From Actinomycetota bacterium (GTDB lineage Bacteria > Actinomycetota > Thermoleophilia > UBA2241): a stretch of DNA of 64,000 nt. The notes under the pieces were generated by a model. The model saw only the letters and a list, made by a program, of their open reading frames with translations, did no database searches and was not told the origin of the DNA. Where the stretch lies: assembly GCA_003132585.1 (NCBI GenBank), contig PKYG01000097.1, positions 1,790-65,789 of the forward strand, in the 5' to 3' direction. Made by a program: the position numbers and the translations under genes. Position 1 is the first letter of the stretch, and each line of letters starts with the position of its first letter. Of this stretch, positions 34,515-60,878 are shown piece by piece.

Positions 34515-34559
34515 GGGCCTCAGCCAACCAACATTCGACGAGCGAGACCGACAAAGGAA

Positions 34560-37312: not shown

Positions 37313-37363
37313 CGCACTTGCAAGGGTGTTACGACAAGAAGCCGTGGGCGGGGTGAAACTGCC

Positions 37364-44412: not shown

Positions 44413-44631
44413 TCGGGATGGAGGCGACATGAGCGGTAGGCTTCGACGTGCTTTGGCCCAGGTTCACTGGCGGCTAGTGGAGGTTGGGGACTTACACGGT
44501 ACGTCGGCTGGCCTTTCGCTCCCTTCACTACCCTCCAACTGGAGTCCAGCCAAGAACCTGGCTGGTGGCTTGGCTGCCCACGGGCGGTGGTTTGCCGAGT
44601 TCCACGGTCCGCATGGGATGGTACAGCACTG

Positions 44632-45465: not shown

Positions 45466-45719
45466 GATGTCGGCGCGGTGGTGAGCGACGTGATGATGTG
45501 TTCGGGAGGCGGGGATGCTGGGGTGGCGCAGGAAGTGGTGATCCGGCCACAGAAGGCCTGGGCTGCAATCGAGTTGGCTGATTCGCGGCGCAACAGGTGA
45601 CTTCTCTCTGTTCTCACGTTGCGAGGCATCCCCATGCGCAGGTGGTCGGCTGCGACGACTCTGAAGCTTGGACTGGAGAAGACCTACCGTTGGATCGAGA
45701 ATCGAGTGCGTGACGAGTC

Positions 45720-46811
45720 GTGAGTAGCATGGCGTCGGTGCGGCGAGACACGCGGGTGATTCTGCTCAGCTACCCGGGGGATCCCGAGTCAGACCTGTTC
45801 AATGCTTCTGCGAGAGACAACTGCTGCCAGCCGTTCCTGATGCTGAGGGCAGAGCTGGCGAAGCGGGGGTTCGTCATAGAGCAGGTGTCTGATCAGCCGT
45901 TGCGGCAATGCGCATGCATCGTCTATTGGAACGTCAACAATCTGCGGCTATCAGGTGGCCTGCGTGGCGTTGCACGACGGCTCAGGTCCGATACCCGCGG
46001 GGCTGCGCGTGACCTGATTTCCGAGGCTCGCAGGCAGGGCCTGACCGAGCGGTTGGCTCTGGTGCTATGGGAGCCGCCGTCCGTGTGTCCGGAAAACTGG
46101 GACCTTAAGACCCACGATCACTTTCCGAGAATTCTCACGTGGAACGACGAGCTAGTTGACGGGGTTCGGTATCACAAGTTCAGACCGCCAGTACCGTCAA
46201 GCTTTCCAGTCGTTCCTGCCAGGCCGTTCGAGTCGAAGAAGCTGCTCACGATGATTGCGATGAACAAGGTCTCCAGTTACCCGAGCGAGTTGTATTCGGC
46301 CAGGGAGCGCTCAATCACCTACTTCGAGACTCATCATCCGGCGGATTTCGACCTATACGGCATAGGCTGGGACGATTCCCCGCAAGTGCCGTCTGGCACG
46401 GGCTCGACACGCTCGGGGCACAGAGCCTCCCAGCGACATCCCTCCTACCGGGAACCGGTGGCAAACAAGTGGAATGTGTTTCCCATATACCGTTTCGCAC
46501 TCTGCTACGAGAACGTGTTCGATCAGTCTGGCTGGGTCACTGAGAAACTCTTCGATTGCATGAGGGCGGATTGTGTCCCCGTGTATTGGGGTGCGCCGAA
46601 TGTCGATGAATACGTTGACAGCCGCGCGTACATCGACAGACGTCGGTTTCAATCGGACTCCGAATTGGCCAGCTACCTCGCCGGAATGTCGGAAGCGCGC
46701 TACGAGGAATACCGGACGGCCGTTCGACAGTATCTCCAGAGTGAAGCCTTCCATCTGTTCGAATCCCCAGCATTTGTCGTAAGTATGTTGCGGGGGCTGG
46801 GCCTATGCTGA
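45720..46811 (+). CDS. GT10-family (alpha-1,3/4-fucosyltransferase-like) glycosyltransferase.
   Basis: YRFALCYENVFDQSGWVTEKLFDCMRADCVPVYWGAPNV corresponds to the GT10 YKFxLxFENS...YxTEKx...VPVxxG C-terminal signature. Confidence 0.6.
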   Translation: MSSMASVRRDTRVILLSYPGDPESDLFNASARDNCCQPFLMLRAELAKRGFVIEQVSDQPLRQCACIVYWNVNNLRLSGGLRGVARRLRSDTRGAARDLISEARRQGLTERLALVLWEPPSVCPENWDLKTHDHFPRILTWNDELVDGVRYHKFRPPVPSSFPVVPARPFESKKLLTMIAMNKVSSYPSELYSARERSITYFETHHPADFDLYGIGWDDSPQVPSGTGSTRSGHRASQRHPSYREPVANKWNVFPIYRFALCYENVFDQSGWVTEKLFDCMRADCVPVYWGAPNVDEYVDSRAYIDRRRFQSDSELASYLAGMSEARYEEYRTAVRQYLQSEAFHLFESPAFVVSMLRGLGLC

Positions 46812-46932
46812 GGCGAGGGGACCCTCCCGGATTGAACGTGGCCGTTCTGGCGGGGGTCTACCACGAGATTGGCCAGGGAACCCCCCAGATGGTGGGTCGC
46901 GGGGTCGACGCGACTTTGCCGCGAGAGGCCCG

Positions 46933-48126
46933 ATGCCACAGCCATGTTGGCCAAGTCAGTGGCTGCGTCGGCGCATGAACGAAAGGCTCCGCATCCTGAT
47001 GATCCTGGCTTCGTCCACGAACGACGCCGTCCCGTACAACACCGTCTGGCGGCGGAATCTCTACGACACGTTGTGCAAGATGGGGCACGACGTTGTGCTC
47101 CTGGCGGCCGAGCCAGGCCGGCGGGCGATGGTGACGCGTGATGCCAAGGCACGCGAAGCATTCAGCGAGGCGGTCCTCACACGGTTCAAGCGCGAACACG
47201 CGAAGAGGCCGTTCGATCTGCTTTTCGGCTACCTCATGGACGGCATGATCGATCCCGCAGTCATCGACGAGATACGCCGTGCCGGTGTGCCGACCTGCAA
47301 CTTCTCCTGCAACAACGTACACCAGTTCGATCTCGTCGACGGGTTGTCCCCGCATTTCGACTTCAACCTGCATTCTGAACGCGACGTCGGTGACAAGTTC
47401 CGTCGAATCGGGGCTACGCCACTCTGGTGGCCGATGGCGTCGAATCCCCAATTCGCGCACCCGGTCGATACTCCGCGCACGCTGGGGGCGTCGTTCGTCG
47501 GAGGCAACTACGGTCTGCGTGCCGACTATGCGCTTCATTTGCTCGAGAACGGCGTGGACCTTCACCTTTACGGGCCCGGCTGGATGTTGTCCGGCCGCAT
47601 CGCCCGCGCCAAGCGCAGACTGCATCGCGACCTCACCATGGGCGCTGCGCTGTTTGCCCCGTCGCTGGCTACCCAAGCGACGCTTACTGCTCGAGCCGCG
47701 CGGATGGACATGATGCGCAGGCTCGCCGCTGCGCATCCCGGCAACGTCCACCAGCCCGTGTCTGATGATGAGGTGATACGCCTCTACAGCAGGAGCAACG
47801 TGTCCCTAGGCTTTCTTGAGGTCTTCGATCATCACGATCCGAGCGGACCGGTCCTGCAGCATCTTCACCTCCGCGAGTTCGAAGGTCCCATGAGCGGCGC
47901 ACTGTACCTGACGAACTACTCCGATGAACTCGCGGAGATGTTCGAACCTGACAAGGAAGTTCTCGTGTGGCGCAACCGCCACGAGCTGCTCGAGAAGGCC
48001 CGGTTCTATGCGGAGCACCCGGAGGCAGGCGACAAGATCCGAGCGGCCGGTCGCAAGAGAGCGCTCGCCTGCCACACCTATCGACATCGGTTTGAGCAGC
48101 TGTTCGAGAAGATCGGGCTGGTCTGA
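46933..48126 (+). CDS. CgeB-like / DUF3880 glycosyltransferase-family protein (paralog 3).
   Basis: LHLREFEGPMSGALYLTNYSDELAEMFEPDKEVLVWRNRHELLEKARFYAEHPE. Alt start ATG 46975. Confidence 0.5.
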   Translation: MPQPCWPSQWLRRRMNERLRILMILASSTNDAVPYNTVWRRNLYDTLCKMGHDVVLLAAEPGRRAMVTRDAKAREAFSEAVLTRFKREHAKRPFDLLFGYLMDGMIDPAVIDEIRRAGVPTCNFSCNNVHQFDLVDGLSPHFDFNLHSERDVGDKFRRIGATPLWWPMASNPQFAHPVDTPRTLGASFVGGNYGLRADYALHLLENGVDLHLYGPGWMLSGRIARAKRRLHRDLTMGAALFAPSLATQATLTARAARMDMMRRLAAAHPGNVHQPVSDDEVIRLYSRSNVSLGFLEVFDHHDPSGPVLQHLHLREFEGPMSGALYLTNYSDELAEMFEPDKEVLVWRNRHELLEKARFYAEHPEAGDKIRAAGRKRALACHTYRHRFEQLFEKIGLV

Positions 48127-48127
48127 C

Positions 48128-49057
48128 ATGTTGCAGGGGTCGCAAGGCAGGAATCGACGTGCGCCGACCGTCCGGGCTGGCGGCGGAGTTGCCAGGGTCA
48201 TGTCGGCCCTGTCGACCCAGTGGTGCGTCGAGGATGCGATCCACGACTATCGCGATGTGTATCTGAAGCTGGTGGGGCGCCTCGAGGAGCTCGTGCACGG
48301 GCGGTCACTCAGCGACGCGCGCATCCTTGAGCTGGGGTGCGGCTATTCGTATCCGAACGTTGCCCTCTTCCATGCCAACGGGCTCGATGCGTGCGGCGTG
48401 GATATCGAGAGAGTCTTCTACCGGGACGGTCGCGTCGCGACGCTCCGGGCTCGGCTTCGAGAGAAGGGACTCTTGCGCGCCATCTATCATGCAGGACCGC
48501 TGTACAGCGGCTACGGGCGCTTCTTTGCGACGCTCTCGGCGTTGGCTCAAACGACTATCGACCACGCCGCCTTGTCGATTCACACCTATGACGGGCAGAG
48601 GTTGCCGTTCCCCGATGAGTCTTTCGATGCAGTGTGCTCAAATGCAGTCCTTGAGCATGTGCACGATATGGGCTCATTCGTTGGCGAGGCAGCGAGAGTG
48701 CTGAGGCCTGGCGGTGTCGTCGACATGGTGTGGCACAACTTCTTCAGCCCGTCCGGCGGGCATCGCACAGAGACCGAAGTCGCACGTTCTCCCTGGGGCC
48801 ACATCACCGGGGATTCCCCACCCTCCTGTTACCTGAATCGAATGCGGCCAAACGAGATCAGGGAAGCGTTCGACCGGTGCTTCACCGTCCTTGACGTTGC
48901 GGGCATCGACCGGGTCTACTCGCTCAAGGGACAAGAGGGCTACATGCCTGAAGGCGCAGAGCTGCTGAGCCCGGAATGGAGGCGGCGGCTACCGGCTTTT
49001 GCCGACGACCTCCTGGCCACTCGCGGTTTTCTCCTTCAGGCAGTGCGCGACAGGTAG
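48128..49057 (+). CDS. Class I SAM-dependent methyltransferase (Methyltransf_11-like).
   Basis: ILELGCGYSYPN (motif I), GVDIER, FDAVCSNAVLEHV, LRPGGVV. ATG 48128 directly after upstream TGA. Confidence 0.7.
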   Translation: MLQGSQGRNRRAPTVRAGGGVARVMSALSTQWCVEDAIHDYRDVYLKLVGRLEELVHGRSLSDARILELGCGYSYPNVALFHANGLDACGVDIERVFYRDGRVATLRARLREKGLLRAIYHAGPLYSGYGRFFATLSALAQTTIDHAALSIHTYDGQRLPFPDESFDAVCSNAVLEHVHDMGSFVGEAARVLRPGGVVDMVWHNFFSPSGGHRTETEVARSPWGHITGDSPPSCYLNRMRPNEIREAFDRCFTVLDVAGIDRVYSLKGQEGYMPEGAELLSPEWRRRLPAFADDLLATRGFLLQAVRDR

Positions 49058-49105
49058 CTCCATGAGAGCCTACTTGATCAAGATCGAAAGGAGTGACCCA
49101 GGGCG

Positions 49106-50014
49106 ATGCCTCGCGTCACCGTGATCACTGCCGCGTACAATGCGGCAGAGTACCTGGCTGAGACCATCGAGAGCGTCCTGGCGCAAACGTACTCCGACTT
49201 CGAGTACATCGTTGTGGACGACGGCTCGGATGACGCGACGCCTGACATCATTGCGGAATACGCCTCACGAATCGTTAGCCTTCGCCAGCCGAACGCTGGC
49301 GAAGGCGCCGCGAGGAATCGTGGATTTGAGATCGCCACCGGAGAGTACGTCGCTATCGTCGATGCCGACGATGTCTGGGCTCAAGAGAAGCTCGAGTGCC
49401 AGGTCCTGGCGATGGAAAGTCAGCCTGACGCAGGACTCTGCTACACGAACGGCTCCTCCATTCGGGCCGATGGTTCCGTCTTGGAAGCTGTCTTGGTTCC
49501 GCCACACTCGCGGCTAACCTGCCTGCGAGCGATGACAGGGCAGAACCCGCTTGTGACGTCTTCCGTGATGTACCGCCGCAGATTCCTGGAGGCGCGCCCA
49601 TACCGAAGCTTGCCTGTCGCAGCGGACTTCTATGTCCATTTGAAAGTTCTCTGGAGAGCTTGCGAGCAATCGGTTTTCGTTGATGAGCCGCTTGTGCGCT
49701 ATCGGGTTGTGGAGACGTCGGTGTTGCGCCAGGTCGACGCTTGGGAGAGAGGACGTCTGACCCTGAAAGCGGTGGAGGCGTTCATCGACGACATGCGCTC
49801 TGAGAAACCGGTGCCGCAAGATCTTCAGCGCCGGGGAGTCGCCTACTCGCGCTTCCTGTGGGCGTGGTACTGCATCGATGGGCGAACGCGCTACCGCTTC
49901 GCGATTGGTCAGCTGGTGTGGGCAGTCCGAGACGACCCCAGACTCGCGTGGCGCGCGGGCCGCCAGGTGGCCAAGCTCACTCGGAACGCGCTTCTTGGTG
50001 CAAGGGGATCCTAG
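49106..50014 (+). CDS. GT2 (GT-A fold) glycosyltransferase.
   Basis: VTVITAAYNAAEYLAETIESVLAQTY..YIVVDDGSDD...IVDADD (DxD). AAGGAG SD upstream of ATG 49106. Confidence 0.8.
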   Translation: MPRVTVITAAYNAAEYLAETIESVLAQTYSDFEYIVVDDGSDDATPDIIAEYASRIVSLRQPNAGEGAARNRGFEIATGEYVAIVDADDVWAQEKLECQVLAMESQPDAGLCYTNGSSIRADGSVLEAVLVPPHSRLTCLRAMTGQNPLVTSSVMYRRRFLEARPYRSLPVAADFYVHLKVLWRACEQSVFVDEPLVRYRVVETSVLRQVDAWERGRLTLKAVEAFIDDMRSEKPVPQDLQRRGVAYSRFLWAWYCIDGRTRYRFAIGQLVWAVRDDPRLAWRAGRQVAKLTRNALLGARGS

Positions 50015-50015
50015 T

Positions 50016-51260
50016 TTGGTCTCACCGATCGCCATTGCCTACGTCACTGACACCTGGCGGCGCCAGGGAGGGGGCGGAGCCGAGAAAGCACTGTTCTCGC
50101 TCATCTCGGGGCTCGACCGTCGCCAGTTTCGCCCACTACTCGTCTCAGTTGCCGGCGACGGAAGCAGCGACTACTTCCGACTCGCTCGCGAAGCGGGCGT
50201 GCCAACTGTTCTGCTGCCAATGACCTTGCGCGAGGGGCGCTGTCGGTCCGCGTCCAACTTCCTGCGTCTTGTCCGGCTTCTCAGACGTCATCGTGTGCGT
50301 ATCGTGCACAGCACACAGGATCAAGGCGCAGGAATTCTCGCAGGCGCCATTGTGGGCGTTGGCGCGCGTTTGTACACGACTCACTGCGTTCTGCCGACAC
50401 CCAGCATGCAACGCTACTTGCTGTCGCGAGCCGTTGTTGCTCATGCCGCCTCGAGGAACATCGCCGTGTCGCAGGTTGTGTCAGGGCATCTTGTCGATCG
50501 CTATCGCGTAGATCCCGCCCGCGTGACCGTGATCTACAACGGCGTGCGAGCAGCCGCGGGCACAAGGCTGGATGCAGCGGTGCAGTGCGAAGCCGAGCGG
50601 CGAGATGCCCCGCCGACGGTGGTCAGTGTGGGCAGGCTCTCTTGGGAGAAAGGAGTCGATATCTTGCTGGACGCGATGGCTGTCGTGGTCGCTCAAGTGG
50701 GGGGTGCGCGCTTGATCGTGGTCGGCGATGGACCAGAGCGTACCGCGCTCGAGTGCCGCGCGGCGGATCTCGGGATCAGCGACAGCGTTCGTTTTGTCGG
50801 ACACCAGACAGAGATCGCGAGCTGGCTGAACCAAGCCACAGTTCTTGCCATGCCGTCTCGATCTGAGGGCATGGGCATGTCGGCGGCAGAAGCACTTGCA
50901 TACGGCATTCCCGTGGTCTGCTCGGGCGCCGGCGGCCTTCCTGAGGTCGTGGAGGATGGCCGCTGCGGCACCGTCGTGGCGGGACCCACGATTGGGGAGG
51001 CCATCGAAGTAGACCCAAGAGCGCTCGCCGAGGCCCTGCTCGTCCTCCTGACCGATCGCGACCGCGCCCAGCGCCTCGGCGCAAACGGGAAAGCGCGGTA
51101 CGATGCCCTCTTCACCGAGGAGGAGTTCCTGCGCCGACACGTCGAGACATACCTCGATGAGCTCGAGCGCACCCGGCGGCGTCGTGCGCGGTCGTGGGCG
51201 CTGTCGTCGTCAACTGACCCCTGCCCTACTGACCAAGGCCCGCCGTGCGCATCGTCGTAG
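50016..51260 (+). CDS. GT4 (GT-B) glycosyltransferase.
   Basis: VVSVGRLSWEKGVDILLDAM...EGMGMSAAEALAYGIPVVCSGAGGLPEVVEDG. Start (TTG 50016) uncertain. Confidence 0.7.
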   Translation: MVSPIAIAYVTDTWRRQGGGGAEKALFSLISGLDRRQFRPLLVSVAGDGSSDYFRLAREAGVPTVLLPMTLREGRCRSASNFLRLVRLLRRHRVRIVHSTQDQGAGILAGAIVGVGARLYTTHCVLPTPSMQRYLLSRAVVAHAASRNIAVSQVVSGHLVDRYRVDPARVTVIYNGVRAAAGTRLDAAVQCEAERRDAPPTVVSVGRLSWEKGVDILLDAMAVVVAQVGGARLIVVGDGPERTALECRAADLGISDSVRFVGHQTEIASWLNQATVLAMPSRSEGMGMSAAEALAYGIPVVCSGAGGLPEVVEDGRCGTVVAGPTIGEAIEVDPRALAEALLVLLTDRDRAQRLGANGKARYDALFTEEEFLRRHVETYLDELERTRRRRARSWALSSSTDPCPTDQGPPCASS

Positions 51261-52474
51261 CCAGCAGCTTCCACTACAGGCGCGGCGGCGATTCTGCCCA
51301 CTTCCTCGATCTCATCGCTGCGCTGGAGAGCCGCGGTCATGAAGTCGCCGTGTTCTCCATGCAACACCCGCTCAATCTGCCGTCTGCTTGGTCTGAGTAC
51401 TGGGTGCCATACATCGAGTATCGGGGCGATCTGAGGCAAGCAGAGCGGCTGCGGGCTGGATGGCGCAGCATCCACACGGCTGAGAGCGCCCGTTGCATGA
51501 GTCGCCTGCTAAGCGATTTCCAGCCCGCTGTCGTCCACTTCCACAGCGTGCAGCATCACCTGACGCTAGGCGCGGTCGAAGCCTGTGTGTCCGCGCATAC
51601 CCCGGTGGTGTGGACCCTCCACGATTACCGGACGGTGTGTCCGGCTACTTCGCTGCTGCGCGGCACCGAGGTCTGCGAGCGTTGTGCGAACGGTCACTTC
51701 TGGCACGGGGTCGCAGGGCGCTGCAAGTCGGGTGAGCTCTCGCGCAGCGTCGCGGCGGTGGTTGAGTCATACGTGACGCGGGCGCGCGGCACACTCGGCG
51801 CGGTGGATTGCTACGTGGCGCCGAGTCAATTCCTAGCGCGCACAGTTGTTGGAATGGGTCTGCCGGCAAAGAGAATCGAGGTAGTACCGAACGCGGTCTT
51901 TGATGAGACCATGCCGATGGCCGCAGGTCATTCGGGCGGCCTGCTCTACGTCGGGCGCCTCTCGGCGGAGAAGGGTGTGGACTGCCTGATCCGTGCCGCA
52001 GCAGGTCTGCCCGAGGTACCCCTGCGCATCGTAGGCGACGGGCCGGGGGCAGAGAGCCTCAAGGCACTTGCGCTGCGTCTAGGCGCCGACGTTGTGTTCG
52101 AAGGATGGGTGGATAAGGTCGGCGTACTTGCTCGCATGTCTGCGGCCGAGCTGCTTTGTGTCCCTTCGATCTGGTACGAGAACTGCCCCGGAGTAGTGCT
52201 GGAGGCAATGGTCGCAGGTCTGCCGATCGTCGCCAGCGATCTTGGCGGCCTCCCTGAACTCCTTGAAGGAGGCCAGGCGGGCTGGCTTGCCCCGGCGGGC
52301 GATGTGGGAGCTCTGCGCTGCGTCATCCGCAGAGCACTCGATGACAAGGCACGCACGGCGCAGCAGGCAGCGCGTGCTCGGTCTCGCGTACTCTTGCGCC
52401 ACGACCCTGACAGATTCGTTTCGCGCATAGAGGGCATCTACCGTTCGCTGGAGACTCCCAATCGAAGGTCGTAG
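51245..52474 (+). CDS. GT4 (GT-B) glycosyltransferase.
   Basis: MRIVVASSFHYRRGGDSAHFL ... YVGRLSAEKGVD...ENCPGVVLEAMVAGLPIVASDLGGLPEL. Confidence 0.8.
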   Translation: MRIVVASSFHYRRGGDSAHFLDLIAALESRGHEVAVFSMQHPLNLPSAWSEYWVPYIEYRGDLRQAERLRAGWRSIHTAESARCMSRLLSDFQPAVVHFHSVQHHLTLGAVEACVSAHTPVVWTLHDYRTVCPATSLLRGTEVCERCANGHFWHGVAGRCKSGELSRSVAAVVESYVTRARGTLGAVDCYVAPSQFLARTVVGMGLPAKRIEVVPNAVFDETMPMAAGHSGGLLYVGRLSAEKGVDCLIRAAAGLPEVPLRIVGDGPGAESLKALALRLGADVVFEGWVDKVGVLARMSAAELLCVPSIWYENCPGVVLEAMVAGLPIVASDLGGLPELLEGGQAGWLAPAGDVGALRCVIRRALDDKARTAQQAARARSRVLLRHDPDRFVSRIEGIYRSLETPNRRS

Positions 52475-52564
52475 CCGCCCTCAGGATCCATGACGCGCTG
52501 GAGGCCGCGCCTCACGGTGGCCAACAGCCACCAGCGTTGTCGCCGGTGAAGTAAAGTACCGGGC

Positions 52565-53539
52565 ATGGACGCCGCCATCATCACCACATATCGCTGCAAC
52601 GCCCGTTGCCGCATGTGTAAGACGTGGCAGTTTCCGACGACGCCGACCGAGGAGTTCGAGCCCGAGCTGCTCCAGAAGCTCCCGGACGGTCTCGGACGCG
52701 TCAATATCACCGGTGGCGAGCCGCTGATCCGGCAGGACCTCCCCGAGATCGTCGACATCCTGGCGCCCAAGGCTAAGCGGCTTGAGATCTCGACCAACGG
52801 CTACTTCACTGACCGACTTGTGGCCATCGCTCGCCGCCACCCCGACCTCACAATCCGTATCAGCATCGAGGGTCTGGCTGAGACCAATGACGGCGTGCGC
52901 GGCATTCGCGACGGCTTCGAACGGGCGATCCGCTCGTTCCACGCGTTGCGAGACGTCGGCGTCGAGGACCTCGGCTTTGCCGTGACCATTCAGGACGACA
53001 ACGCGCACGACCTCCTGAACCTCTACGAGTTCGTCTCAGCCGAGGGCGCGGAGTTCGCTCAGGCCGTGCCGCACAACAGCTACTACTTCCACACGAACGA
53101 GAACGAGATCCGTGACGTGGCGGCAGTCCAGTCGGCCATACGGGGGCTCATGGAAGCATTCCTGCGTTCCCGCAAGCCCAAGGAGTGGTTCCGGGCCTAC
53201 CTGAACCGCGGTTTGGTCGACTATGTTGGCGGGGCTGAGCGGCGCTTCGCATGTACGGCCGCGACCGACATCTTCTTTCTCGACCCGTTCGGCGAGGTGT
53301 ACCCGTGCAACGGCTGGGACCTGAGCATGGGCAACCTGCACGACTCCTCGTTCGATCAGATCTGGACGGGGGAGAGGGCAGAGGCGGTGCGCGCGCAGGT
53401 CGCGGGCTGCGAGCGCCGCTGCTGGATGACGGGCACGGCGGTGCCGGCGATGAAGCATCACTTGCCGTCGGTGGCATGGTGGGTGGCGCGCAACAAGGTG
53501 CGTGTGGCGCTCGGCAAGCCCGTCGACCTGGGGGACTGA
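52565..53539 (+). CDS. Radical SAM enzyme with C-terminal Cys-rich SPASM/twitch-like domain.
   Basis: N-terminal CNARCRMC (CxxxCxxC) 11 residues from ATG. C-terminal CTAATDIFFLDPFGEVYPCNGW...CERRCWMTG cysteine cluster. Confidence 0.75.
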   Translation: MDAAIITTYRCNARCRMCKTWQFPTTPTEEFEPELLQKLPDGLGRVNITGGEPLIRQDLPEIVDILAPKAKRLEISTNGYFTDRLVAIARRHPDLTIRISIEGLAETNDGVRGIRDGFERAIRSFHALRDVGVEDLGFAVTIQDDNAHDLLNLYEFVSAEGAEFAQAVPHNSYYFHTNENEIRDVAAVQSAIRGLMEAFLRSRKPKEWFRAYLNRGLVDYVGGAERRFACTAATDIFFLDPFGEVYPCNGWDLSMGNLHDSSFDQIWTGERAEAVRAQVAGCERRCWMTGTAVPAMKHHLPSVAWWVARNKVRVALGKPVDLGD

Positions 53540-53543: not shown

Positions 53544-54698
53544 GTGCGCATCGCCCACATCGGGTCCAAAGGCATCCCGTCCAAGGGCGGGACCGAACGT
53601 GTTGTCGAGGCCATTGCGACGCGCCACGCCCGTGAGCACCAGGTCACCGTGTACGGGAGTGCGCGCGTCTGTTCGACCGGGATGCACCGAGGCGTGCGCG
53701 TGCTCGCGATCCCTGCGCCCGCGGCCAAGCACGTGGGCCCCGTGGTCCTGCAGCTGCGCGCTGCGCTGCACGCGCTGACGCGGGAGCGCTACGACCTCGT
53801 CCACGTCCACGCGTCTGAGAACGGTTTCATTGTGCCGCTGCTGCGGCTTCGCTACCCGGTGGTGACGACCAACCATGGACCTGCCTACGAGCGCGAGAAG
53901 TGGGGAGCTGTCGCTCGCTGGCTCATCCGCGCCAACGAGCGCTTCTCAGTCAAGCAAGCGACGATCGCGACCGCCGTCGCGGCGACTCAGGCGCGATCGC
54001 TGTCCGAGCGCTACCGGCGGCCGGTGGAGCACATTCCCAACGGCGTGGATGCAAGCGAGCCCAGCGCGAGTACCGAAGCACTCGATCTGCTCGAACGCTA
54101 CGGCCTCAGGAGCCGGGGCTATGTCCTCTTCGCTGCCGCGCGGGTGGACCGGACGAAGGGGTGCCACACGCTTCTCGGGGCGTGTCGCCTCATGCACGCG
54201 CCTCCCGCGGTGCTCGTGGTCGGCGACCTTTATCACGCGCCGGGGTATGAAGCCCAGCTTCGAGAGCTGGCCAATGGCCTGCCGGTCACGTTCCTGCCTC
54301 GCCTTGATGAGAAAGCGGTGCTGATGGGCCTCCTGCAGCACTGCCGCGTGTTCGTCTTCCCGTCGACGGTCGAGGCCATGTCGATGATGTTGCTCGAGGC
54401 GCTCGCCGTGGGCACCGTCGGCATCGCCAGCGACATCCCCGAGAACACGTCGATCCTGCCCGAGGGATACCCGACGTTCGCGGCCGGGGACTCCGCCGCG
54501 CTGTGCCGGCAATTCGAGGGGGTTCTCGAGTGGGATGACGCGGCGCGTGCAGCGTTCATTGAGCGGGGCAGGGAGTGGGTGCGAGGCCGCTACGACTGGG
54601 GCGGCATCGCGACCCAGTACGAAGCACTCTACCGTCAGGCCTGCATTGGCGTTGACGCAGGAGCCGGGCGAGCCCCTGAGGAAGTAGGTAGCAACTAA
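53544..54698 (+). CDS. GT4 (GT-B) glycosyltransferase.
   Basis: VRIAHIGSKGIPSKGGTERVVEAI ... FPSTVEAMSMMLLEALAVGTVGIASDIPEN. GTG 53544 with GGGGGAC SD. Confidence 0.75.
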   Translation: MRIAHIGSKGIPSKGGTERVVEAIATRHAREHQVTVYGSARVCSTGMHRGVRVLAIPAPAAKHVGPVVLQLRAALHALTRERYDLVHVHASENGFIVPLLRLRYPVVTTNHGPAYEREKWGAVARWLIRANERFSVKQATIATAVAATQARSLSERYRRPVEHIPNGVDASEPSASTEALDLLERYGLRSRGYVLFAAARVDRTKGCHTLLGACRLMHAPPAVLVVGDLYHAPGYEAQLRELANGLPVTFLPRLDEKAVLMGLLQHCRVFVFPSTVEAMSMMLLEALAVGTVGIASDIPENTSILPEGYPTFAAGDSAALCRQFEGVLEWDDAARAAFIERGREWVRGRYDWGGIATQYEALYRQACIGVDAGAGRAPEEVGSN

Positions 54699-54735: not shown

Positions 54736-55866
54736 GTGACGATTGTGCCGTTCGTCGATCTTCGCGCGCAGGCGCGCGACCTGCACGACGAGTTCCACGA
54801 GGTGTTCGAGTCGGTCACCTCGCGCGCCGCCTACACGATGGGGCCGGAGCTCAAGGAGTTTGAGGCCGCCTTCGCCGCGTTCTGTGGCTGCGAATGCGCC
54901 GTTGGAGTCAGTTCGGGTACAGACGCGGTCAAGCTGGCGCTGCTCGGGGCGAATGTGCGACCGGGGGACGAGGTGTTTGTCCCAGCGAACACGTTCATCG
55001 CCACCGCCGAGGCCGTGAGCCACGTCGGCGCCGTGCCCGTGTTCGTCGACTGCCTGGAGGAGACGGCGCTGATGGACGCGGCCGCCCTGGAGGCGGCCGC
55101 TGCGGAGCACGAGGGCAGTGCCACGGCCGTCATACCGGTACACCTCTACGGCCAGCCGTGCGACATGGATGCGATCCAGGAGGTCGCCGACCGCCACGGG
55201 CTTGCGGTGGTGGAGGACGCCTGCCAGGCGCATGGAGCGACCTATAAGGGGCGGCCGTGCGGCAGCATGGGCGTCACGGCCGCCTTCAGCTTCTACCCGG
55301 GCAAGAACCTGGGAGCGCTCGGCGACGGCGGCGCGGTCACAACCAACAGCGCCGAGCTGGCCGAGCGCCTGCGCCTGCTGCGCAACCACGGCCAGGCCGA
55401 CAAATACACCCACACGCTGATCGGCTACTGCGACCGGTTGCACAACCTGCAGGCGGCGTTGTTGAGCGTGAAGCTAGCTCGTCTGGCCGGCTGGAACGAG
55501 GCGCGGCGAGCGGCCGCCGAACGCTACGCACGAACACTTCAAGCAATCGCGGGGGTACGGCCGATTGGCAGAAGCGACGATGCTACTCCTGTTTTTCACC
55601 TCTACGTCGTGCGCCTTCTCGGTCGGTCCGCCGCCTTCCGCGACGCCGTCCGCGAGCGCCTCGTCGAGGCGGGCGTGGAGAGCGGCATCCACTACCCCGT
55701 GCCGCTGCACCTGCAGCCCGCCTACGCGCATCTTGGCTACCGTCCGGGTGACTTCCCCGTGGCCGAGCGCCTGGCCGCCGAGATCCTCTCGCTGCCGATG
55801 TTCCCGGAGATCACGGAGGAGCAGCAGGACCATGTGGCCTCGGCATTGGCGGCGGCGCTGCACTGA
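54736..55866 (+). CDS. DegT/DnrJ/EryC1-family PLP-dependent sugar aminotransferase (WbpE/PglE-like).
   Basis: VSSGTDAVKLAL ... VEDACQAHGATYKG ... FSFYPGKNLGALGDGGAV (Lys present). Confidence 0.85.
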   Translation: MTIVPFVDLRAQARDLHDEFHEVFESVTSRAAYTMGPELKEFEAAFAAFCGCECAVGVSSGTDAVKLALLGANVRPGDEVFVPANTFIATAEAVSHVGAVPVFVDCLEETALMDAAALEAAAAEHEGSATAVIPVHLYGQPCDMDAIQEVADRHGLAVVEDACQAHGATYKGRPCGSMGVTAAFSFYPGKNLGALGDGGAVTTNSAELAERLRLLRNHGQADKYTHTLIGYCDRLHNLQAALLSVKLARLAGWNEARRAAAERYARTLQAIAGVRPIGRSDDATPVFHLYVVRLLGRSAAFRDAVRERLVEAGVESGIHYPVPLHLQPAYAHLGYRPGDFPVAERLAAEILSLPMFPEITEEQQDHVASALAAALH

Positions 55867-55942: not shown

Positions 55943-57433
55943 TTGCCTAGGCGGCAACACACGCGCCGGGGGACACTGCTGCACAGGGGACCAAGAGTGA
56001 TCAGGAGACTGCCGCGCATCGTCGGTTCTGCCATCTTGGATGGCACAGCGCTCGCTGCCGCCTACTTCATCGCCCTCGCTATCCGCGACGGCATGCCTTC
56101 CGGGCAGTACCTCTCGCAGGGCACCTACGTCACCGACTGGTCGCTCTGCGTCATGCTCGTGGCCACCGCGGTCTCCTTCGCCGCCTTCGGCCTGTACACG
56201 GCCGAGGTCTACGTGTACCGGCCGCTGCTGCTCCGCACGCTCGTCAAGGGCTGGGCCAGCGCGCTCATCGTCTCCGCGGTCACGGTGTACTTCGTTAAGT
56301 CGCCCCACATAAACCAGTCGCGCTTCCTGCTGCTCGCCACCTTCGGCCTGTTCGCGCTGTTCAGTGCCTTGCTGCGCCTGTCGATCCATGCCCGCGCGTA
56401 CCGGCGCAAGGTCGCCGAGCAGAAGCCGATAGTGTTGGTGGTCGGCCAGTCGGCGCGCTCAGAAGTGCTCAAGAGCCACCTCAGCGATCTTTGCGGCTTC
56501 AGCCGCTGGAAGGCCATTGTCTGCCCAGGCGGCGCTCGCGAGTACTCTCTCGCGGTCACGGCGGCCCTCGACGGCGCGGCCGCTAACGGTCGCGTCGTGC
56601 AGGCCGTCATCATCGACGTGGGTGGCATGCCGTTGCAGGGCGTGCTGCCGGTGGTGCAGCAGGTACGCGCACGCCGCTGCTGCGAGGTCTACATGCTCTC
56701 CGAGCTTGCCTGGCCCTTGCGACCTACGCCGCTGCTCGGCGAGCTCTTCGCGGCACCGGTGGTGCGCGTGCGCCGTCGGGCGCCCAACGGCGCCGAGCGC
56801 CGCGCCAAGCGCGTGCTCGACATCCTGCTCTCGTCACTGGGTCTCGCCGCTTTCGCCCTGCCCATGGGCGCCATCGCGGTGGCGATCGAGCTCAGCTCGC
56901 CCGGCCCGCTCTTCCACCGCCAGGAGCGCATCGGTCTGCGCGGCCGCAGCTTCCACTTCGTCAAGTTCCGCAGCATGGTGGTCGGCGACCACCAGCAGCG
57001 CCACCGTGAGTACGTGCAGGCGCTGATCGCCGGTGAAACGGAAGGGTGTGATCAGGGGGACCCGGAGGAGCACGTCAGGGTCCTCAAGATGACCGAGGAC
57101 GATCACGTTACACGGGTGGGCCGCTTCCTCCGCCGCTATTCGCTCGATGAGCTGCCACAGCTCTGGAACGTGCTGCGCGGCGACATGAGCCTGGTGGGGC
57201 CGCGCCCGCCGCTTCCTTACGAGGTCGACGCCTACACCGGCTGGCACCGCCAGCGGCTGCAGTCGCTGCCCGGCCTCAGCGGCCTGTGGCAGGTCGGCGG
57301 CCGTAGTCGCGTCACCTTCGACGAGATGGTCTTCCAGGACCTGCTGTATGCCACCAACCAATCGCCGCTGCTCGACCTGGCCATCTGCCTGCGCACGGTG
57401 CCGGCGATCATCAATGGCCACGGGGCAGCGTGA
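55943..57433 (+). CDS. Polyprenyl-phosphate glycosyl-1-phosphate transferase (WbaP/WcaJ 'bacterial sugar transferase' family), initiating enzyme.
   Basis: N-terminal TM helices plus C-terminal KRVLDILLSSLGLAAFALP...SPGPLFHRQERIGLRGRSFHFVKFRSM...DELPQLWNVLRGDMSLVGPRP. Start TTG 55943 or GTG 55997. Confidence 0.8.
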   Translation: MPRRQHTRRGTLLHRGPRVIRRLPRIVGSAILDGTALAAAYFIALAIRDGMPSGQYLSQGTYVTDWSLCVMLVATAVSFAAFGLYTAEVYVYRPLLLRTLVKGWASALIVSAVTVYFVKSPHINQSRFLLLATFGLFALFSALLRLSIHARAYRRKVAEQKPIVLVVGQSARSEVLKSHLSDLCGFSRWKAIVCPGGAREYSLAVTAALDGAAANGRVVQAVIIDVGGMPLQGVLPVVQQVRARRCCEVYMLSELAWPLRPTPLLGELFAAPVVRVRRRAPNGAERRAKRVLDILLSSLGLAAFALPMGAIAVAIELSSPGPLFHRQERIGLRGRSFHFVKFRSMVVGDHQQRHREYVQALIAGETEGCDQGDPEEHVRVLKMTEDDHVTRVGRFLRRYSLDELPQLWNVLRGDMSLVGPRPPLPYEVDAYTGWHRQRLQSLPGLSGLWQVGGRSRVTFDEMVFQDLLYATNQSPLLDLAICLRTVPAIINGHGAA

Positions 57434-57455
57434 TCGTGTCGTGAGCCTTGATCAA

Positions 57456-58481
57456 GTGAAGACGCTAGCGCTCATCGGCTCTGGCTACTGGGGACCCAAC
57501 CTATTACGCAACTACATGGACATCCCCGATGTGAACCTCAAGTGGGTCTGCGATCTGCTCCCGGCGGTTCTCGACAAAGCACATAGCCTCTGTCCGACGG
57601 TACAGACGACCACCTCGGTCGACGATGTGCTCCGCGACCCCGAGGTAGACGGCGTGCTCATCGCCACGCCCATCGGTACGCACTATCAGCTCAGCAAGGC
57701 AGCCCTGCTTGCCGGCAAGCACGTGTTCGTAGAGAAGCCGCTCACCACGTCGGCCACGCAGTGCGCCGATCTCACGGTGCTCGCCGCCGAGCGGAAGCTC
57801 ACGCTCATGGTGGGCCACACCTTCATCTACAGCCCGCCGGTGCGCAAGGTCAAGGAGCTCATCGATGCGGGCGAGCTCGGCGAGGTGCGTTTTGTGACCA
57901 TGCAGCGCGTCAACCTCGGTCTGCACCAGAAAGACGCCAGCGTCATCTGGGACCTCGCCGCTCACGACCTGTCCATCCTCGACTACTGGCTGGAGGAGAT
58001 GCCCTGCGTCGTCGACTCCATCGGTCGCGACTGCATGCGTAACGGCATTCCGGACGTCGCCTTTGTCAACCTGCAGTACCCCTCCGGCGTGGTGGCTCAG
58101 GTCACTGTCTCCTGGCTCTCTCCCGTCAAGCTGCGGCGCACCGTGGTGGTCGGGGACCGCAAGATGCTCGTCTACGACGACACGGAGCCGGTGGAGAAAG
58201 TCAAGGTGTTCGACCACGGCGCTGAGTTCAAGGAACCGGAGTCGTTCGCCGAGTTCCAGATGGTCTACCGCACCGGCGACATCATCAGCCCGAAGATCGG
58301 CAACGCGGAGCCGCTACGGCTAGAGGCCGAGCACTTCCTGGACTGCATCGGCAATGGGCACAACCCGATCACCAACGGTGAGATGGGCCTGCGCGTGGTC
58401 GCCGTCTTGGAGGCCGCCGATGCCTCCTTGCGCGAAGGCGTCCGCAAGACCGTCGAGCTCGGACCGAGCGTCCTTGCCTGA
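57456..58481 (+). CDS. Gfo/Idh/MocA-family NAD(P)-dependent oxidoreductase (WbpB-like nucleotide-sugar 3-dehydrogenase candidate).
   Basis: Start chosen at GTG 57456, giving MKTLALIGSGYWGPN Rossmann N-terminus. Downstream HVFVEKPL, MVGHTFIY typical of the family. Confidence 0.7.
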   Translation: MKTLALIGSGYWGPNLLRNYMDIPDVNLKWVCDLLPAVLDKAHSLCPTVQTTTSVDDVLRDPEVDGVLIATPIGTHYQLSKAALLAGKHVFVEKPLTTSATQCADLTVLAAERKLTLMVGHTFIYSPPVRKVKELIDAGELGEVRFVTMQRVNLGLHQKDASVIWDLAAHDLSILDYWLEEMPCVVDSIGRDCMRNGIPDVAFVNLQYPSGVVAQVTVSWLSPVKLRRTVVVGDRKMLVYDDTEPVEKVKVFDHGAEFKEPESFAEFQMVYRTGDIISPKIGNAEPLRLEAEHFLDCIGNGHNPITNGEMGLRVVAVLEAADASLREGVRKTVELGPSVLA

Positions 58482-58506
58482 GCCCGCCGTATACGACGGG
58501 GTACAG

Positions 58507-59145
58507 GTGGCGCCGGGCGTGGTCATCGGACCGGGCGCCGACCTGCAGGCACCCTGCATCCTCGGCAAGGCGCCACGCGGGGCGGCCGACGGAGAGCTGC
58601 CGCTCGTCATCGGCGCCAACGCCGTCGTTCGGCCCTTCACCACGATCTATGCCGGCAGCACCTTCGGCGATCGCCTGCAGACCGGCCAGGGCGCCAGCAT
58701 CCGCGAAGACAACGTCGTCGCCGACGACGTCTCTATCGGCGCCAATGCCGTTCTGGAGTTCGGAAACAGAATAGGCAGCCGGGTGCGCATCCACTCCGGC
58801 TGCTTCCTCGAGATGGTGACGATCGAAGACGACGTGTTCGTAGGTCCCCACGTCGTCTTCACCGACGACCCTCACCCCATGAACTGTCCGCGCTACAAAG
58901 ACTGCAAGGGTGGCCCGGTGGTGCGCCGTCTGGCCCGCATCGGTGCCAATGTCACCATCCTGCCGGGTGTGGTCGTCGGCGAGAACGCTCTCGTGGGGGC
59001 CGGCTCGGTCGTTGTCGACGATGTCCCGCCGGGGGCCGTCGTCGTCGGCAACCCGGCCCGGGTGGTCAAGTACGTCGGCGACCTCACCTGCGGTCCAGGC
59101 CTTGTCGCCAGGCCCTTCGACTGGCCCCCGTACGCGGGCGTGTGA
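58507..59145 (+). CDS. Hexapeptide-repeat acetyltransferase (WbpD-like amino-sugar N-acetyltransferase candidate).
   Basis: Left-handed beta-helix repeats (VVIGPGADL, VIGANAVVRPFTTI, SIGANAVLEFGNRIGSRVRIHSGCFL, ARIGANVTILPGVVVGENALVGAGSVV). GTG 58507 with GACGGGG SD. Confidence 0.7.
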   Translation: MAPGVVIGPGADLQAPCILGKAPRGAADGELPLVIGANAVVRPFTTIYAGSTFGDRLQTGQGASIREDNVVADDVSIGANAVLEFGNRIGSRVRIHSGCFLEMVTIEDDVFVGPHVVFTDDPHPMNCPRYKDCKGGPVVRRLARIGANVTILPGVVVGENALVGAGSVVVDDVPPGAVVVGNPARVVKYVGDLTCGPGLVARPFDWPPYAGV

Positions 59146-59240
59146 CGGCATGCTGCTACTGATAGGATGATGATGCTTCATCCCTCGATCCCCCGGAGAT
59201 CAGCTTGACTGAGGTGAACGGCCTCAACGGTGAGCCGCAG

Positions 59241-60878
59241 GGCATGACACTACGCGACTACGCTCAGGTGATCGTGCGGCGACTGTGGCTGATTCTCCTC
59301 ATCGTCGCGGTCGCCACCGGCGCGGCGTTCTTCTTCTCCTCGCGACAGACGAAGATGTACGCGGCGACCGCCAAGATCATGTACACGGCCTCGCTCAATG
59401 TGGCCGATCCGCTGACCGGGCAATCCTATGTCGATCCGAATGCGCGGGCAGCCGATCTGGCGAGCGTCGCCACCGTCATCAGCAGCCCAGACATGCAGCA
59501 GCGCGGTGCCGCCTTGGTGCGCACGCAGGAGCCTGCGCCCGCCGCATTCAGCGTCACGGCCGTGGTGCAGAGTGACAGCACCACCGTGAACACGGGCACG
59601 AACACGGTCGTCGACATCAACGGCACCAGCAGCGCCCCCGCGACAGCCGAGATCGCCGCCAACGCCTATGCGAAATCGTTCATCGAGTGGCGCAAGGAGA
59701 TAGAGAGAGCGCAGATCGGCAGCGCGCTCGATGCGTTGAAGACGCGCATGGCCGAGTTCAAGACGGCCGTCGCCCAACAAAGCACCGAGTACCTCATCCT
59801 CGTCCAGCGCGTCCAGGACCTGGAGATCCGCAAGGCAACGGTCACGGGCAACTTCAGCTTCGTCGTGCCCGCCTCGCTGCCTGCGGCGCCGTACGCACCG
59901 AAACCGCTGCGCAGCGCCATCCTCGGCCTGGCCGTGGGCCTCTTCGCCGCCATCGGCCTCGCCTTCCTGCTCGAGCAGCTCGACACGAGCATCCGCACCG
60001 AGGATCGGCTCCTCGGCATCATGCGCCAGCCGATCCTCGGGCGCATCCCGCGCATCGCCAAGAAGGCGCTCGAGCACGGCGTGCTGCTCACGATCAGCGC
60101 GCCGACCAGCGCGGCGGCGGAGGCGTTTCGCATGCTGCGCAGCAACCTCGACTTCACGCAGGTCGACGGCGATCTTTCGTCGGTGCTCGTGACCAGCTCG
60201 GTGCAGGGCGAGGGCAAGTCCGTCACCGCCTGCAACCTCGGCGTCTCGCTGGCGCTTGCCGGCAAGCGCATCGTCGTCGTCGACGGCGACCTGCGTCGGC
60301 CACGCGTGCACGCCTACTTCGGTCTCAGCAACGAGACTGGCGTCTCCACCGTGGCCTCGGGCAGGACCAAGCTCACCGACGCCCTGCAAGCCGTGTGGCT
60401 GCGGCCGGGCAACGACAACGGACCGGCCGCCGCCGCGTCGCTCGCCGACGGCGGCTCGGCGAACGTCCCGAAGCTGTACGTGCTGTCCAGCGGCCCGCTG
60501 CCGCCGAACCCCGGCGAGGTCGTCGCCTCCAAGCGCTTCGCGGCGATCGTCAAGCAGCTCGAGCGGGAGGCCGACCTTGTCATCGTCGACTCGCCGGCGA
60601 TGCTCGCCGTGGGCGACACGGCGGAGTTGGCGAGCAAGGTCGACGGCATGGTCTACCTCGTCGACATGAAGCTCATGCGCCGTCCGATGTTGGAGGAGGC
60701 GGTACGCCGGCTCGGCCAGGTGCCCTGCCGCAAGCTGGGGCTCGTCGTCATCCGTCACTCTCAGAACTCGGCCTACTACCGCCGGCACTACTACTACTAC
60801 ACGTACGGCCAGGACGGCGGCAAGCAGGTCAAGTCGCGCTTCGGCGAGAAGCGGGAGAAGGCGCCGGTCGAGTCGTAG
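59241..60878 (+). CDS. Polysaccharide co-polymerase / tyrosine autokinase (Wzc/BY-kinase-like: Wzz-type periplasmic domain plus P-loop kinase plus Tyr cluster).
   Basis: N-terminal TM plus coiled region. Walker A-like SSVQGEGKSV, VVVDGDLRRP, DLVIVDSPA. C-terminal YYRRHYYYYTYGQ. Alt start TTG 59205. Confidence 0.8.
   Translation, partial: GMTLRDYAQVIVRRLWLILLIVAVATGAAFFFSSRQTKMYAATAKIMYTASLNVADPLTGQSYVDPNARAADLASVATVISSPDMQQRGAALVRTQEPAPAAFSVTAVVQSDSTTVNTGTNTVVDINGTSSAPATAEIAANAYAKSFIEWRKEIERAQIGSALDALKTRMAEFKTAVAQQSTEYLILVQRVQDLEIRKATVTGNFSFVVPASLPAAPYAPKPLRSAILGLAVGLFAAIGLAFLLEQLDTSIRTEDRLLGIMRQPILGRIPRIAKKALEHGVLLTISAPTSAAAEAFRMLRSNLDFTQVDGDLSSVLVTSSVQGEGKSVTACNLGVSLALAGKRIVVVDGDLRRPRVHAYFGLSNETGVSTVASGRTKLTDALQAVWLRPGNDNGPAAAASLADGGSANVPKLYVLSSGPLPPNPGEVVASKRFAAIVKQLEREADLVIVDSPAMLAVGDTAELASKVDGMVYLVDMKLMRRPMLEEAVRRLGQVPCRKLGLVVIRHSQNSAYYRRHYYYYTYGQDGGKQVKSRFGEKREKAPVES

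Follow-up and report, generated by a model that had tools for sequence, protein, structure and literature searches.

A twitch-type radical SAM enzyme encoded between two GT4 glycosyltransferase genes in a surface-glycan locus of an actinomycetotal bacterium

The window studied here is the whole 64,000-nucleotide stretch of contig PKYG01000097.1 (assembly GCA_003132585.1, Actinomycetota, Thermoleophilia), and it carries a gene for a small radical S-adenosylmethionine (SAM) enzyme, referred to as rSAM, which lies between two genes for GT4-family glycosyltransferases, GT4b upstream and GT4c downstream (Table 1). A first-pass annotation of the sequence had described this gene as a 324-residue reading frame, having the cluster motif CNARCRMC near the N-terminus, being flanked by GT4 genes on both sides and lacking a cobalamin-binding domain, and each of these points is confirmed by the present analysis. 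The translated product begins with MDAAIITTYRCNARCRMC, the CNARCRMC sequence occupies residues 11 to 18, and the G+C content at third codon positions (0.86) is typical of coding sequence in the window, of which the overall G+C content is 65%; the rSAM reading frame is a real and well conserved gene. The Pfam scan assigns residues 5-157 to Radical_SAM (65.4 bits, gathering threshold 29.5) and residues 230-286 to SPASM (38 bits, threshold 21.5), and it identifies no domain beyond these two, neither a B12-binding domain (PF02310) nor a RiPP recognition element (RRE; RiPP, peptide that is made on the ribosome and modified after translation) or other peptide-recognition domain. There is no N-terminal extension, the cluster motif being preceded by just 10 residues. 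Within the window, no second paralogue of rSAM is found.

Exactly seven cysteines are invariant when rSAM is aligned, first with 27 and then with 189 homologues, being Cys11, Cys15, Cys18, Cys230, Cys248, Cys282 and Cys286, and among the 189 homologues there is no further conserved cysteine. The first three form the CX3CX2C motif of the SAM-cleaving [4Fe-4S] cluster, the invariance of which in the 189 sequences disregards N-terminally truncated gene calls. The GGE motif (Gly50-Gly51-Glu52) and the ribose motif (Ser76-Thr77-Asn78) are also invariant, as are the polar residues Arg98, Glu102, Asn108, Asp109, Arg112, His170, Asn171, Tyr174, Asn180 and Arg226. The other four cysteines are located in the C-terminal region, in the stretch CTAATDIFFLDPFGEVYPCNGW...CERRCW. 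It had been suggested that this region is SPASM/twitch-like, and the cysteine-bearing stretch and the SPASM match both stand; the seven-cysteine SPASM signature, CX9-15GX4C...CX2CX5CX3C...C, is not present, as the 189 sequences share only four C-terminal cysteines. Since there are just these four, all of them invariant, rSAM is classified from its sequence as a twitch radical SAM enzyme with a single predicted auxiliary cluster and not as a two-cluster SPASM enzyme, and the SPASM match is explained by the Pfam model, which also covers twitch domains.

The AlphaFold2 model that was built on the alignment (pLDDT 92, pTM 0.89) is a partial TIM barrel of six beta/alpha units, followed by a C-terminal hairpin/helix domain. 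In this twitch domain, the predicted secondary structure consists of a beta-hairpin at residues 236-247 (strands 236-239 and 244-247) and helices at 263-278, ahead of the Cys282-x3-Cys286 pair. A membrane-anchoring function of the C-terminal helix was also considered, and it is not singled out by a hydrophobic-moment scan. When the model is compared with the structures of the Protein Data Bank (PDB) using Foldseek, the matches point to the SPASM/twitch class without discriminating within it, including SkfB, anSME, ChlB, BlsE, CteB, MoaA, SuiB, PqqE, viperins, AbmM and SpeY.

The association of rSAM with its GT4 neighbours is preserved in other genomes, as found by fetching about 90 loci and comparing the neighbours with the genes of the window, both by tblastn and by calling open reading frames (ORFs). 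In the tblastn comparison, a GT4c homologue is found about 1 kb past rSAM and on the same strand in nearly every locus, and a GT4b homologue is often found at about -1.25 kb. In the ORF calling, the gene directly downstream is GT4c-like, adjacent and on the same strand in 45 of 67 loci, and of 71 loci, 58 have a GT4c-like gene and 37 have a GT4b-like gene no more than two genes away from rSAM. GT4c precedes rSAM in eight loci, such that the adjacency is kept and the order is not. The best cross-locus match of the downstream GT4 is another downstream GT4 in 41 of 47 cases, with 35 of 47 for the GT4s at the first and second upstream positions, and the partners are therefore orthologue groups and not just any GT4. 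GT4 is also the sole family that recurs within five genes of rSAM (66 of 70 loci), minor contributions coming from polyprenyl-phosphate glycosylphosphotransferases (16), DegT aminotransferases (12) and others. The genes are tightly spaced, with median gaps of 4 nt downstream, where 4-nt overlaps are frequent, and 27 nt upstream, most gaps being shorter than 100 nt.

In the list of ORFs of the window, GT4c extends from 53502, and its conserved N-terminus, VRIAHIGSKGIPSKGG, begins at the GTG codon at 53544. A Pfam DUF1972 match is obtained for 27 of 39 GT4c orthologues. DUF1972 is the N-terminal domain of GacB, a rhamnosyltransferase acting on GlcNAc-pyrophosphate-undecaprenol directly after priming, and in GacB this domain has been proposed to be the acceptor site for the lipid-pyrophosphate-linked sugar (PMC6802508). 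The upstream partner, GT4b, has an insertion with four cysteines, Cys132-x11-Cys144-x2-Cys147-x12-Cys160 (nt 51638..51724), which are kept in 83-87% of 29 positional orthologues; in sequence this resembles a zinc-ribbon or an Fe-S site placed within the acceptor domain of a GT-B enzyme.

Relatives of rSAM are abundant. A word-indexed search retrieves 2111 proteins at E<=1e-5, the best 120 of which share between 94% and about 45% identity with rSAM, and an exhaustive profile search retrieves 804 clusters (at 50% identity) at E<=1e-30. The family spans more than 20 phyla. Among GTDB species representatives, at least 582 loci encode a relative, and these belong to Bacteroidota, Bacillota, Desulfobacterota, Chloroflexota, Nitrospirota, Planctomycetota, Omnitrophota and other phyla. 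Carriers are found in Alistipes, Parabacteroides, Muribaculaceae, Blautia, Lachnospiraceae, Desulfobulbus, Desulfosarcina, Smithella and Anaerolineae, and also in Nitrospirae, Kuenenia, Omnitrophota, Armatimonadota, Verrucomicrobiota, Crenothrix and others; Parabacteroides acidifaciens 426-9, Blautia luti, Desulfobulbus elongatus DSM 2908 and Desulfosarcina ovata are carriers available in culture. The relatives of more than 70% identity (77-94%) are all on metagenome contigs, the best GTDB species representative being 55% identical. The first-pass annotation had left open whether profile models would place the protein in a housekeeping family, and they do not, nor are the usual partners of such families found nearby. 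No NCBIfam model reaches its own cutoff on rSAM: the best score is obtained for TIGR04347 (72.9 bits, cutoff 525), followed by AhbD (70.8, cutoff 500), NirJ (69.4, cutoff 515), MftC (62.2, cutoff 265), HpnH (52.3, cutoff 225) and MoaA (51.6, cutoff 284), and across the equivalog models (AhbD, NirJ, MoaA, MftC, anSME-like and others) the scores range from 40 to 73 bits, where the cutoffs are 225-850. The source names of the homologues, such as "Fe-coproporphyrin III synthase" (JGI) and "MoaA/NifB/PqqE/SkfB family", are generic, as no curated model comes near its cutoff. The rSAM family is uncharacterised and very widespread, and no description of its arrangement with glycosyltransferases was found in the literature.

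Fusions were surveyed among the best 150 representatives of the family. A GT4-rSAM fusion occurs in P0223 (two members from independent sources) and in P0253 (three members, from JGI, ENA and NCBI), a GT2-rSAM fusion in P0242 (seven contigs) and in P0169, an rSAM-methyltransferase fusion in P0246, an rSAM-GHL15-FG-GAP fusion in P0251 and an rSAM-DUF1972 GT4 fusion of 717 residues in P0144, which is a singleton cluster on a JGI contig of 24.8 kb. With the exception of P0144, these fusions form a sister clade, of 29-36% identity in the alignment, which keeps the CX3CX2C motif and the C-terminal fold markers Lys206, Trp208, Trp287, Trp306 and Lys311 and lacks all four twitch cysteines. In P0144 the situation is reversed, the twitch cysteines being kept and the CX3CX2C motif being degenerate, with only its first cysteine left; judged from these residues, it may be a 'pseudo-radical-SAM' domain that is retained as an accessory domain of the glycosyltransferase. 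The locus of P0242 encodes Wzy, Wzz and, downstream, a GT4 and a DUF1972 GT4. It is also observed that the sister-clade fusions (loci L092 and L093, 6797..8596) recur in independent assemblies, in Wzy/Wzz loci with a DUF1972 GT4 and a GHL15/FG-GAP protein adjoining. An apparent GT1-rSAM fusion among the close relatives, P0019, was discarded as a probable assembly frameshift, the GT4b gene being split over two frames in that locus (L001).

Comparison with characterised enzymes identifies several partial likenesses. The best match is SkfB, the sporulation killing factor thioether synthase (PDB entry: 6EFN), with a profile E-value of 2.4e-21 over residues 3-283, a Foldseek E-value of 7e-14 and a TM-score of 0.64. 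Both proteins combine a radical SAM core with a single-cluster twitch domain, in which a cysteine, a hairpin and a second cysteine are followed by C-terminal cysteines. However, SkfB has an N-terminal peptide-binding extension of about 100 residues and a precursor gene, skfA, and rSAM has neither; moreover, rSAM is encoded among glycosyltransferases, and the sequence identity is only about 20%. The second-best structural match is the anaerobic sulfatase maturing enzyme anSME, which is the archetype of the SPASM enzymes (PDB entries: 4K36-39; E = 2e-12, TM-score 0.63), and Pfam SPASM matches the C-terminus of rSAM, but anSME has at least seven auxiliary cysteines and two clusters, as compared with four cysteines and one predicted cluster in rSAM, for which no sulfatase or target-motif partner is seen.

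Enzymes with carbohydrate-like substrates are also among the matches. BtrN (PDB entry: 4M7T) and SpeY (PDB entry: 7WZX), which are twitch radical SAM dehydrogenases from the pathways of aminocyclitol antibiotics, are small and lack an RRE, and they have one auxiliary cluster that is fully ligated by cysteines. The BtrN twitch domain aligns to the rSAM profile with E = 1.6e-6 over residues 217-282, and SpeY is found by Foldseek; the similarity of both to rSAM is, however, weak and limited to twitch or core segments, and the substrate of BtrN, which is part of an antibiotic cluster, is a free aminocyclitol, whereas rSAM belongs to a Wzy/Wzz glycan locus. In butirosin biosynthesis, the keto product is passed on to a DegT-family aminotransferase. 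A DegT gene is likewise located two genes downstream of rSAM, but DegT is not universal at the rSAM loci, and the window also has a candidate NAD-type 3-dehydrogenase. The cytosylglucuronate decarboxylase BlsE (PDB entry: 7VOB; TM-scores 0.64/0.63, profile E = 3.6e-11) and AbmM (PDB entry: 8WM2; profile E = 2.9e-11) are of comparable size and fold. They act on nucleoside-linked sugars, which shows that this fold class handles C-H chemistry of sugars on glycosylated or nucleotide substrates; nevertheless, a confident alignment is limited to the N-terminal core (residues 10-157 or 10-100), both enzymes belong to antibiotic pathways, and a uronic-acid-forming dehydrogenase is not seen in the window.

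The gene arrangement itself has a parallel in the streptococcal rhamnose-polysaccharide loci, where gacA, a gene for a sugar-nucleotide enzyme, adjoins gacB, the gene for a DUF1972 GT4 rhamnosyltransferase. GT4c is of the DUF1972 type, like GacB, and in both arrangements a tailoring or donor-making gene would be located directly upstream. The differences are that rSAM takes the place of an NAD(P)H-dependent reductase and that no consistent rml genes are found, and the relationship of GT4c to Cps2T is no more than distant (28 bits, cutoff 500).

With moderate confidence we propose that rSAM is a sugar-tailoring radical enzyme of surface-glycan assembly, which would act at an early lipid-linked stage or in the making of the donor for GT4c. 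The earlier suggestion that the enzyme takes part in glycan biosynthesis has strong support from the synteny with GT4 orthologues across phyla and from the fusions in the sister clade, and it is this synteny, the tight coupling of the genes and the fusion of sister-clade members to glycosyltransferases of two folds that argue for a role on glycans. Around rSAM, no conserved peptide, RRE domain or cofactor-pathway partner was found. In the proposed mechanism, the reduced [4Fe-4S] cluster bound by Cys11, Cys15 and Cys18 would cleave SAM, generating a 5'-deoxyadenosyl radical that abstracts a hydrogen atom from a sugar carbon, and a second, auxiliary cluster would be bound by Cys230, Cys248, Cys282 and Cys286. 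The substrate could be an early polyprenyl-pyrophosphate-linked mono- or disaccharide, which is bound or made by the DUF1972 GT4, or it could be the nucleotide-sugar donor of GT4c, mirroring the gacA-gacB layout, and these two possibilities are considered to be about equally likely. As to the outcome of the radical step, our leading guess, by analogy with BtrN and SpeY and advanced only tentatively, is an oxidation to a keto-sugar, in which the cysteine-ligated auxiliary cluster would serve as the electron sink. Epimerisation, by return of a hydrogen atom to the other face, is a less likely outcome, and a similarly low expectation is attached to dehydration, decarboxylation and rearrangement when these are taken together. 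A broader proposal, which is possible but which we regard as doubtful, is that the rSAM family and its glycosyltransferase-fused sister clade constitute an unrecognised class of radical enzymes that edit sugars just before or after their transfer to polyprenyl pyrophosphate, in a complex with the DUF1972 GT4; the editing could be, for instance, an oxidation or epimerisation at an unactivated C-H position of a lipid-linked sugar.

Several findings weigh against the sugar-tailoring proposal. The absence of the twitch cysteines from the sister clade implies that the auxiliary cluster is dispensable for the shared role of the wider family, which weakens the case for a BtrN-like oxidation, and no conserved non-cluster cysteine that could be the hydrogen donor, as in the known radical SAM epimerases, is present among the 189 homologues. 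The fusions are confined to the sister clade, except for the singleton P0144 with its degenerate CX3CX2C motif and the probable artefact P0019. The closest relative of solved structure, SkfB, is a peptide-modifying enzyme, and anSME, ChlB, CteB and SuiB also rank high. No gene of sugar-nucleotide biosynthesis is universal within five genes of rSAM in the 70 loci, such that the substrate is not deducible from the neighbourhood, and full-text searches of the literature on radical SAM enzymes in capsule, O-antigen, exopolysaccharide (EPS) and undecaprenyl contexts returned nothing on the rSAM family.

The alternative that survives best, which we nevertheless consider unlikely, is that rSAM is an anSME-like protein maturase, whose target would be not a sugar but one of the two GT4 partners, such as a residue of GT4c or of the Cys4 insertion in GT4b. 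This would agree with the nearest solved relatives (SkfB, anSME, ChlB and CteB), which act on peptides or proteins, with the finding that what strictly accompanies rSAM is one particular family of proteins rather than a sugar pathway, and with the conserved Cys4 motif of GT4b. GT4b is, however, missing from about half of the loci, GT4c has no conserved cysteine, and no conserved target motif of the Cys/Ser-X-Pro-X-Arg type is seen in the GT4 partners. In addition, the fusion partners are of unrelated folds (a GT4 of the GT-B fold, a GT2 of the GT-A fold and a methyltransferase), which is a better fit to a shared small-molecule or glycan substrate.

It is improbable that the target of rSAM is the lipid carrier, or some other portion of the intermediate that is not a sugar, for example in a radical addition to the polyprenyl chain as in the adenosyl-hopene transferase HpnH. 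The HpnH model aligns weakly but over nearly the full length (52 bits, residues 8-248), and the DUF1972 domain of the partner is proposed to bind the lipid-pyrophosphate end of the acceptor; the score is, however, far below the HpnH cutoff of 225, there is no precedent in the literature searched, and the many invariant polar residues would be more in keeping with a sugar/phosphate pocket.

A RiPP maturase is a very remote alternative, its precursor being encoded by the 19-codon reading frame just upstream of rSAM or by another nearby small ORF. The first-pass annotation had already noted that this mini-ORF exists, that it is most likely due to chance, and that a RiPP precursor would sit at this position. 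As the place for the precursor of a SPASM/twitch enzyme the position is indeed suitable, the best PDB match is SkfB, and with arginine at 6 of 19 codons the mini-ORF is in the top 1% of the short ORFs of the window. It lies in the frame of GT4b, 15 nt after its TAG stop codon, and the window contains 498 ATG-initiated ORFs of at least 19 codons (7.8 per kb). Against a precursor, the mini-ORF is not conserved in relatives: in the closest one (L091, rSAM 94% identical), which has the same spacer, the frame reads ATG GCG GGC TGA and stops at codon 4; in the next (L090, 91% identical), a 56-nt insertion generates an unrelated peptide of 20 residues; and in L084, L085, L088 and L089 (82-88% identical), GT4b abuts or overlaps the start of rSAM and there is no spacer. 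The gaps on the two sides of rSAM likewise leave no conserved space for a small ORF, the rSAM protein starts at its cluster motif and has no RRE domain, and no protease, exporter or leader-type partner recurs. The precursor reading therefore falls with the non-conservation of the mini-ORF, from which its richness in arginine does not rescue it, and the sequence comparison identifies the mini-ORF as a chance reading frame that has no part in the function of rSAM. The RNA fold of the spacer is not better than that of shuffled sequences (z = -1.17), no promoter or terminator signals above shuffles are present in it, and no Rfam match is obtained in the window. The 3' half of the spacer (52510..52564) is nearly identical in the 91-94% identical relatives, with the inverted repeats GGTGGC...GCCACC and CCGGT...ACCGG just ahead of the rSAM start; the spacer is missing in other relatives.

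Equally improbable is a misplaced housekeeping cofactor enzyme, as the JGI names of the homologues and the best NCBIfam matches (AhbD, NirJ and MoaA-type models) might suggest, given that scores of 40-73 bits are reached where the curated cutoffs are 225-650, that no partner genes for heme, molybdenum cofactor or pyrroloquinoline quinone are present in the approximately 90 loci, and that rSAM has four twitch cysteines instead of the full SPASM signatures of AhbD and NirJ.

To our knowledge, almost all radical SAM enzymes described as working on sugars belong to antibiotic pathways, for example DesII, BtrN, AprD4, BlsE and GenK. The rSAM family described here is large and phylogenetically broad. 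Synteny, translational coupling and fusion link it to the glycosyltransferases of capsule, O-antigen and EPS loci, and its value lies in the three-gene cassette (GT4, rSAM, DUF1972 GT4) at the level of the family and not in the single locus. If the sugar-tailoring proposal is correct, many anaerobes, among them Bacteroidales and Lachnospiraceae of the human gut, in which capsule chemistry shapes the interactions with the immune system and with phages, are predicted to have unusual residues (keto, epimerised, deoxy or rearranged) in their surface glycans. If the proposal of an unrecognised class were also correct, radical SAM chemistry would enter mainstream surface-polysaccharide assembly in more than 20 phyla, including the gut Bacteroidales and Clostridia. 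Labels such as "Fe-coproporphyrin III synthase" and "PqqE/MoaA family" are misleading when given to genes of the rSAM family.

The surroundings of the cassette are those of a large surface-glycan locus, which extends over about 16-64 kb of the window and consists almost entirely of glycan genes on the + strand. It encodes short-chain dehydrogenase/reductase (SDR) epimerases and dehydratases, DegT aminotransferases, methyltransferases, GT2, GT4 and GT10-like transferases, and also a Wzm/Wzt exporter, Wzy-like proteins, two polyprenyl-phosphate glycosylphosphotransferases, a Wzz/BY-kinase and a GDP-fucose-synthase-like protein. Downstream of the cassette, the block continues with the DegT, glycosylphosphotransferase, Gfo/Idh/MocA and hexapeptide acetyltransferase genes in the lineage of the window and in several Desulfobacterota, the DegT gene being syntenic in L001-L003, L006, L010, L012, L013, L056 and L084-L088. 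Since genes for a 3-dehydrogenase, an aminotransferase, an N-acetyltransferase and a priming phosphotransferase adjoin the cassette, their sequences suggest that the glycan probably begins with a di-N-acetylated amino sugar of the 2,3-diacetamido type.

Table 1. Positions of rSAM, its sequence motifs and the neighbouring genes in the window
Feature	Position	Strand	Evidence and remarks
GT4b, upstream GT4 with Cys4 insertion	51245..52474	+	Pfam GT4; frequent partner
19-codon mini-ORF, MTRWRPRLTVANSHQRCRR followed by a stop codon	52490..52549	+	Due to chance and no gene; located in a 90-nt spacer that is lineage-specific
rSAM, radical SAM/twitch enzyme gene	52565..53539	+	324 codons; Pfam Radical_SAM and SPASM; homologues of 94-45% identity; AlphaFold2 model
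CX3CX2C (Cys11, Cys15, Cys18), SAM-cleaving [4Fe-4S] cluster	52595..52618	+	Read from sequence; invariant in 189 aligned homologues (truncated gene calls disregarded)
Twitch-type auxiliary-cluster domain, residues ~226-290	53240..53434	+	Cys230-x17-Cys248...Cys282-x3-Cys286; aligns to the SkfB and BtrN twitch domains
GT4c, DUF1972-type GT4	53544..54698	+	Pfam GT4 domains; near-constant partner; GTG start 4 nt past the rSAM stop
DegT/DnrJ/EryC1-type sugar aminotransferase	54736..55866	+	Pfam, 388 bits; lineage-specific part of the block
Polyprenyl-phosphate glycosylphosphotransferase, initiating enzyme	55943..57433	+	Pfam Bac_transf; TIGR03025, 306 bits (above cutoff, 295.55)
Gfo/Idh/MocA oxidoreductase, UDP-GlcNAc 3-dehydrogenase-like, start uncertain	57348..58481	+	Pfam; NF040723, 141 bits (below cutoff)
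Hexapeptide-repeat sugar N-acetyltransferase-like, start uncertain	58354..59145	+	Pfam Hexapep; NeuD/PglB/VioB, 78 bits (below cutoff)
Wzz/BY-kinase chain-length regulator	59205..60878	+	Pfam Wzz/GNVR/CbiA; TIGR01007, 129 bits (above cutoff, 108)

The second EPS-type glycosylphosphotransferase (60933..62402, - strand) is full-length and scores above the TIGR03025 cutoff, like the one in Table 1. Wzy-like genes are present at 31513..33036 and 37364..38767, in addition to the Wzm/Wzt pair, and from its gene content the window seems to encode more than one glycan pathway. At 21798..23854 there is a pair of thiamine diphosphate (ThDP) E1 alpha/beta-like genes (E1_dh; Transket_pyr and Transketolase_C), surrounded by genes for SDR epimerases and dehydratases, two DegT proteins, methyltransferases (including DUF268) and the Wzm/Wzt ABC exporter (26068..28268); by its sequence, this region resembles a biosynthetic route to a two-carbon-branched amino sugar of an ABC-transporter-dependent glycan. 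A separate set at 1..14300 includes genes for a GT87-like membrane transferase, a three-domain ThDP enzyme (2083..3963), an SDR, a 3-dehydroquinate-synthase-like sugar-phosphate cyclase (5464..6537), two HAD phosphatases, a 734-residue GtrA-domain membrane protein, a GHMP kinase and an FkbM methyltransferase, and may correspond to a cyclitol or unusual sugar-phosphate pathway.

At 20000..50000 the G+C content is 58-64%, lower than in the first 14 kb (66-72%) and from 50 kb onwards (65-68%); horizontal transfer may have brought in the central glycan genes, the rSAM block having the higher G+C content. In one 86% identical relative (L086, 2389..5969), a different radical SAM/SPASM gene of 356 codons follows genes for a DUF362 protein and a RimK-like ATP-grasp protein, a few kilobases upstream of the GT4-rSAM-GT4 cassette, and it has no counterpart in the window. 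In the 88% identical relative (L084, 3744..5515), an IS21-type element (rve transposase and IstB) is inserted inside the glycan locus, which is consistent with these loci being mosaic.

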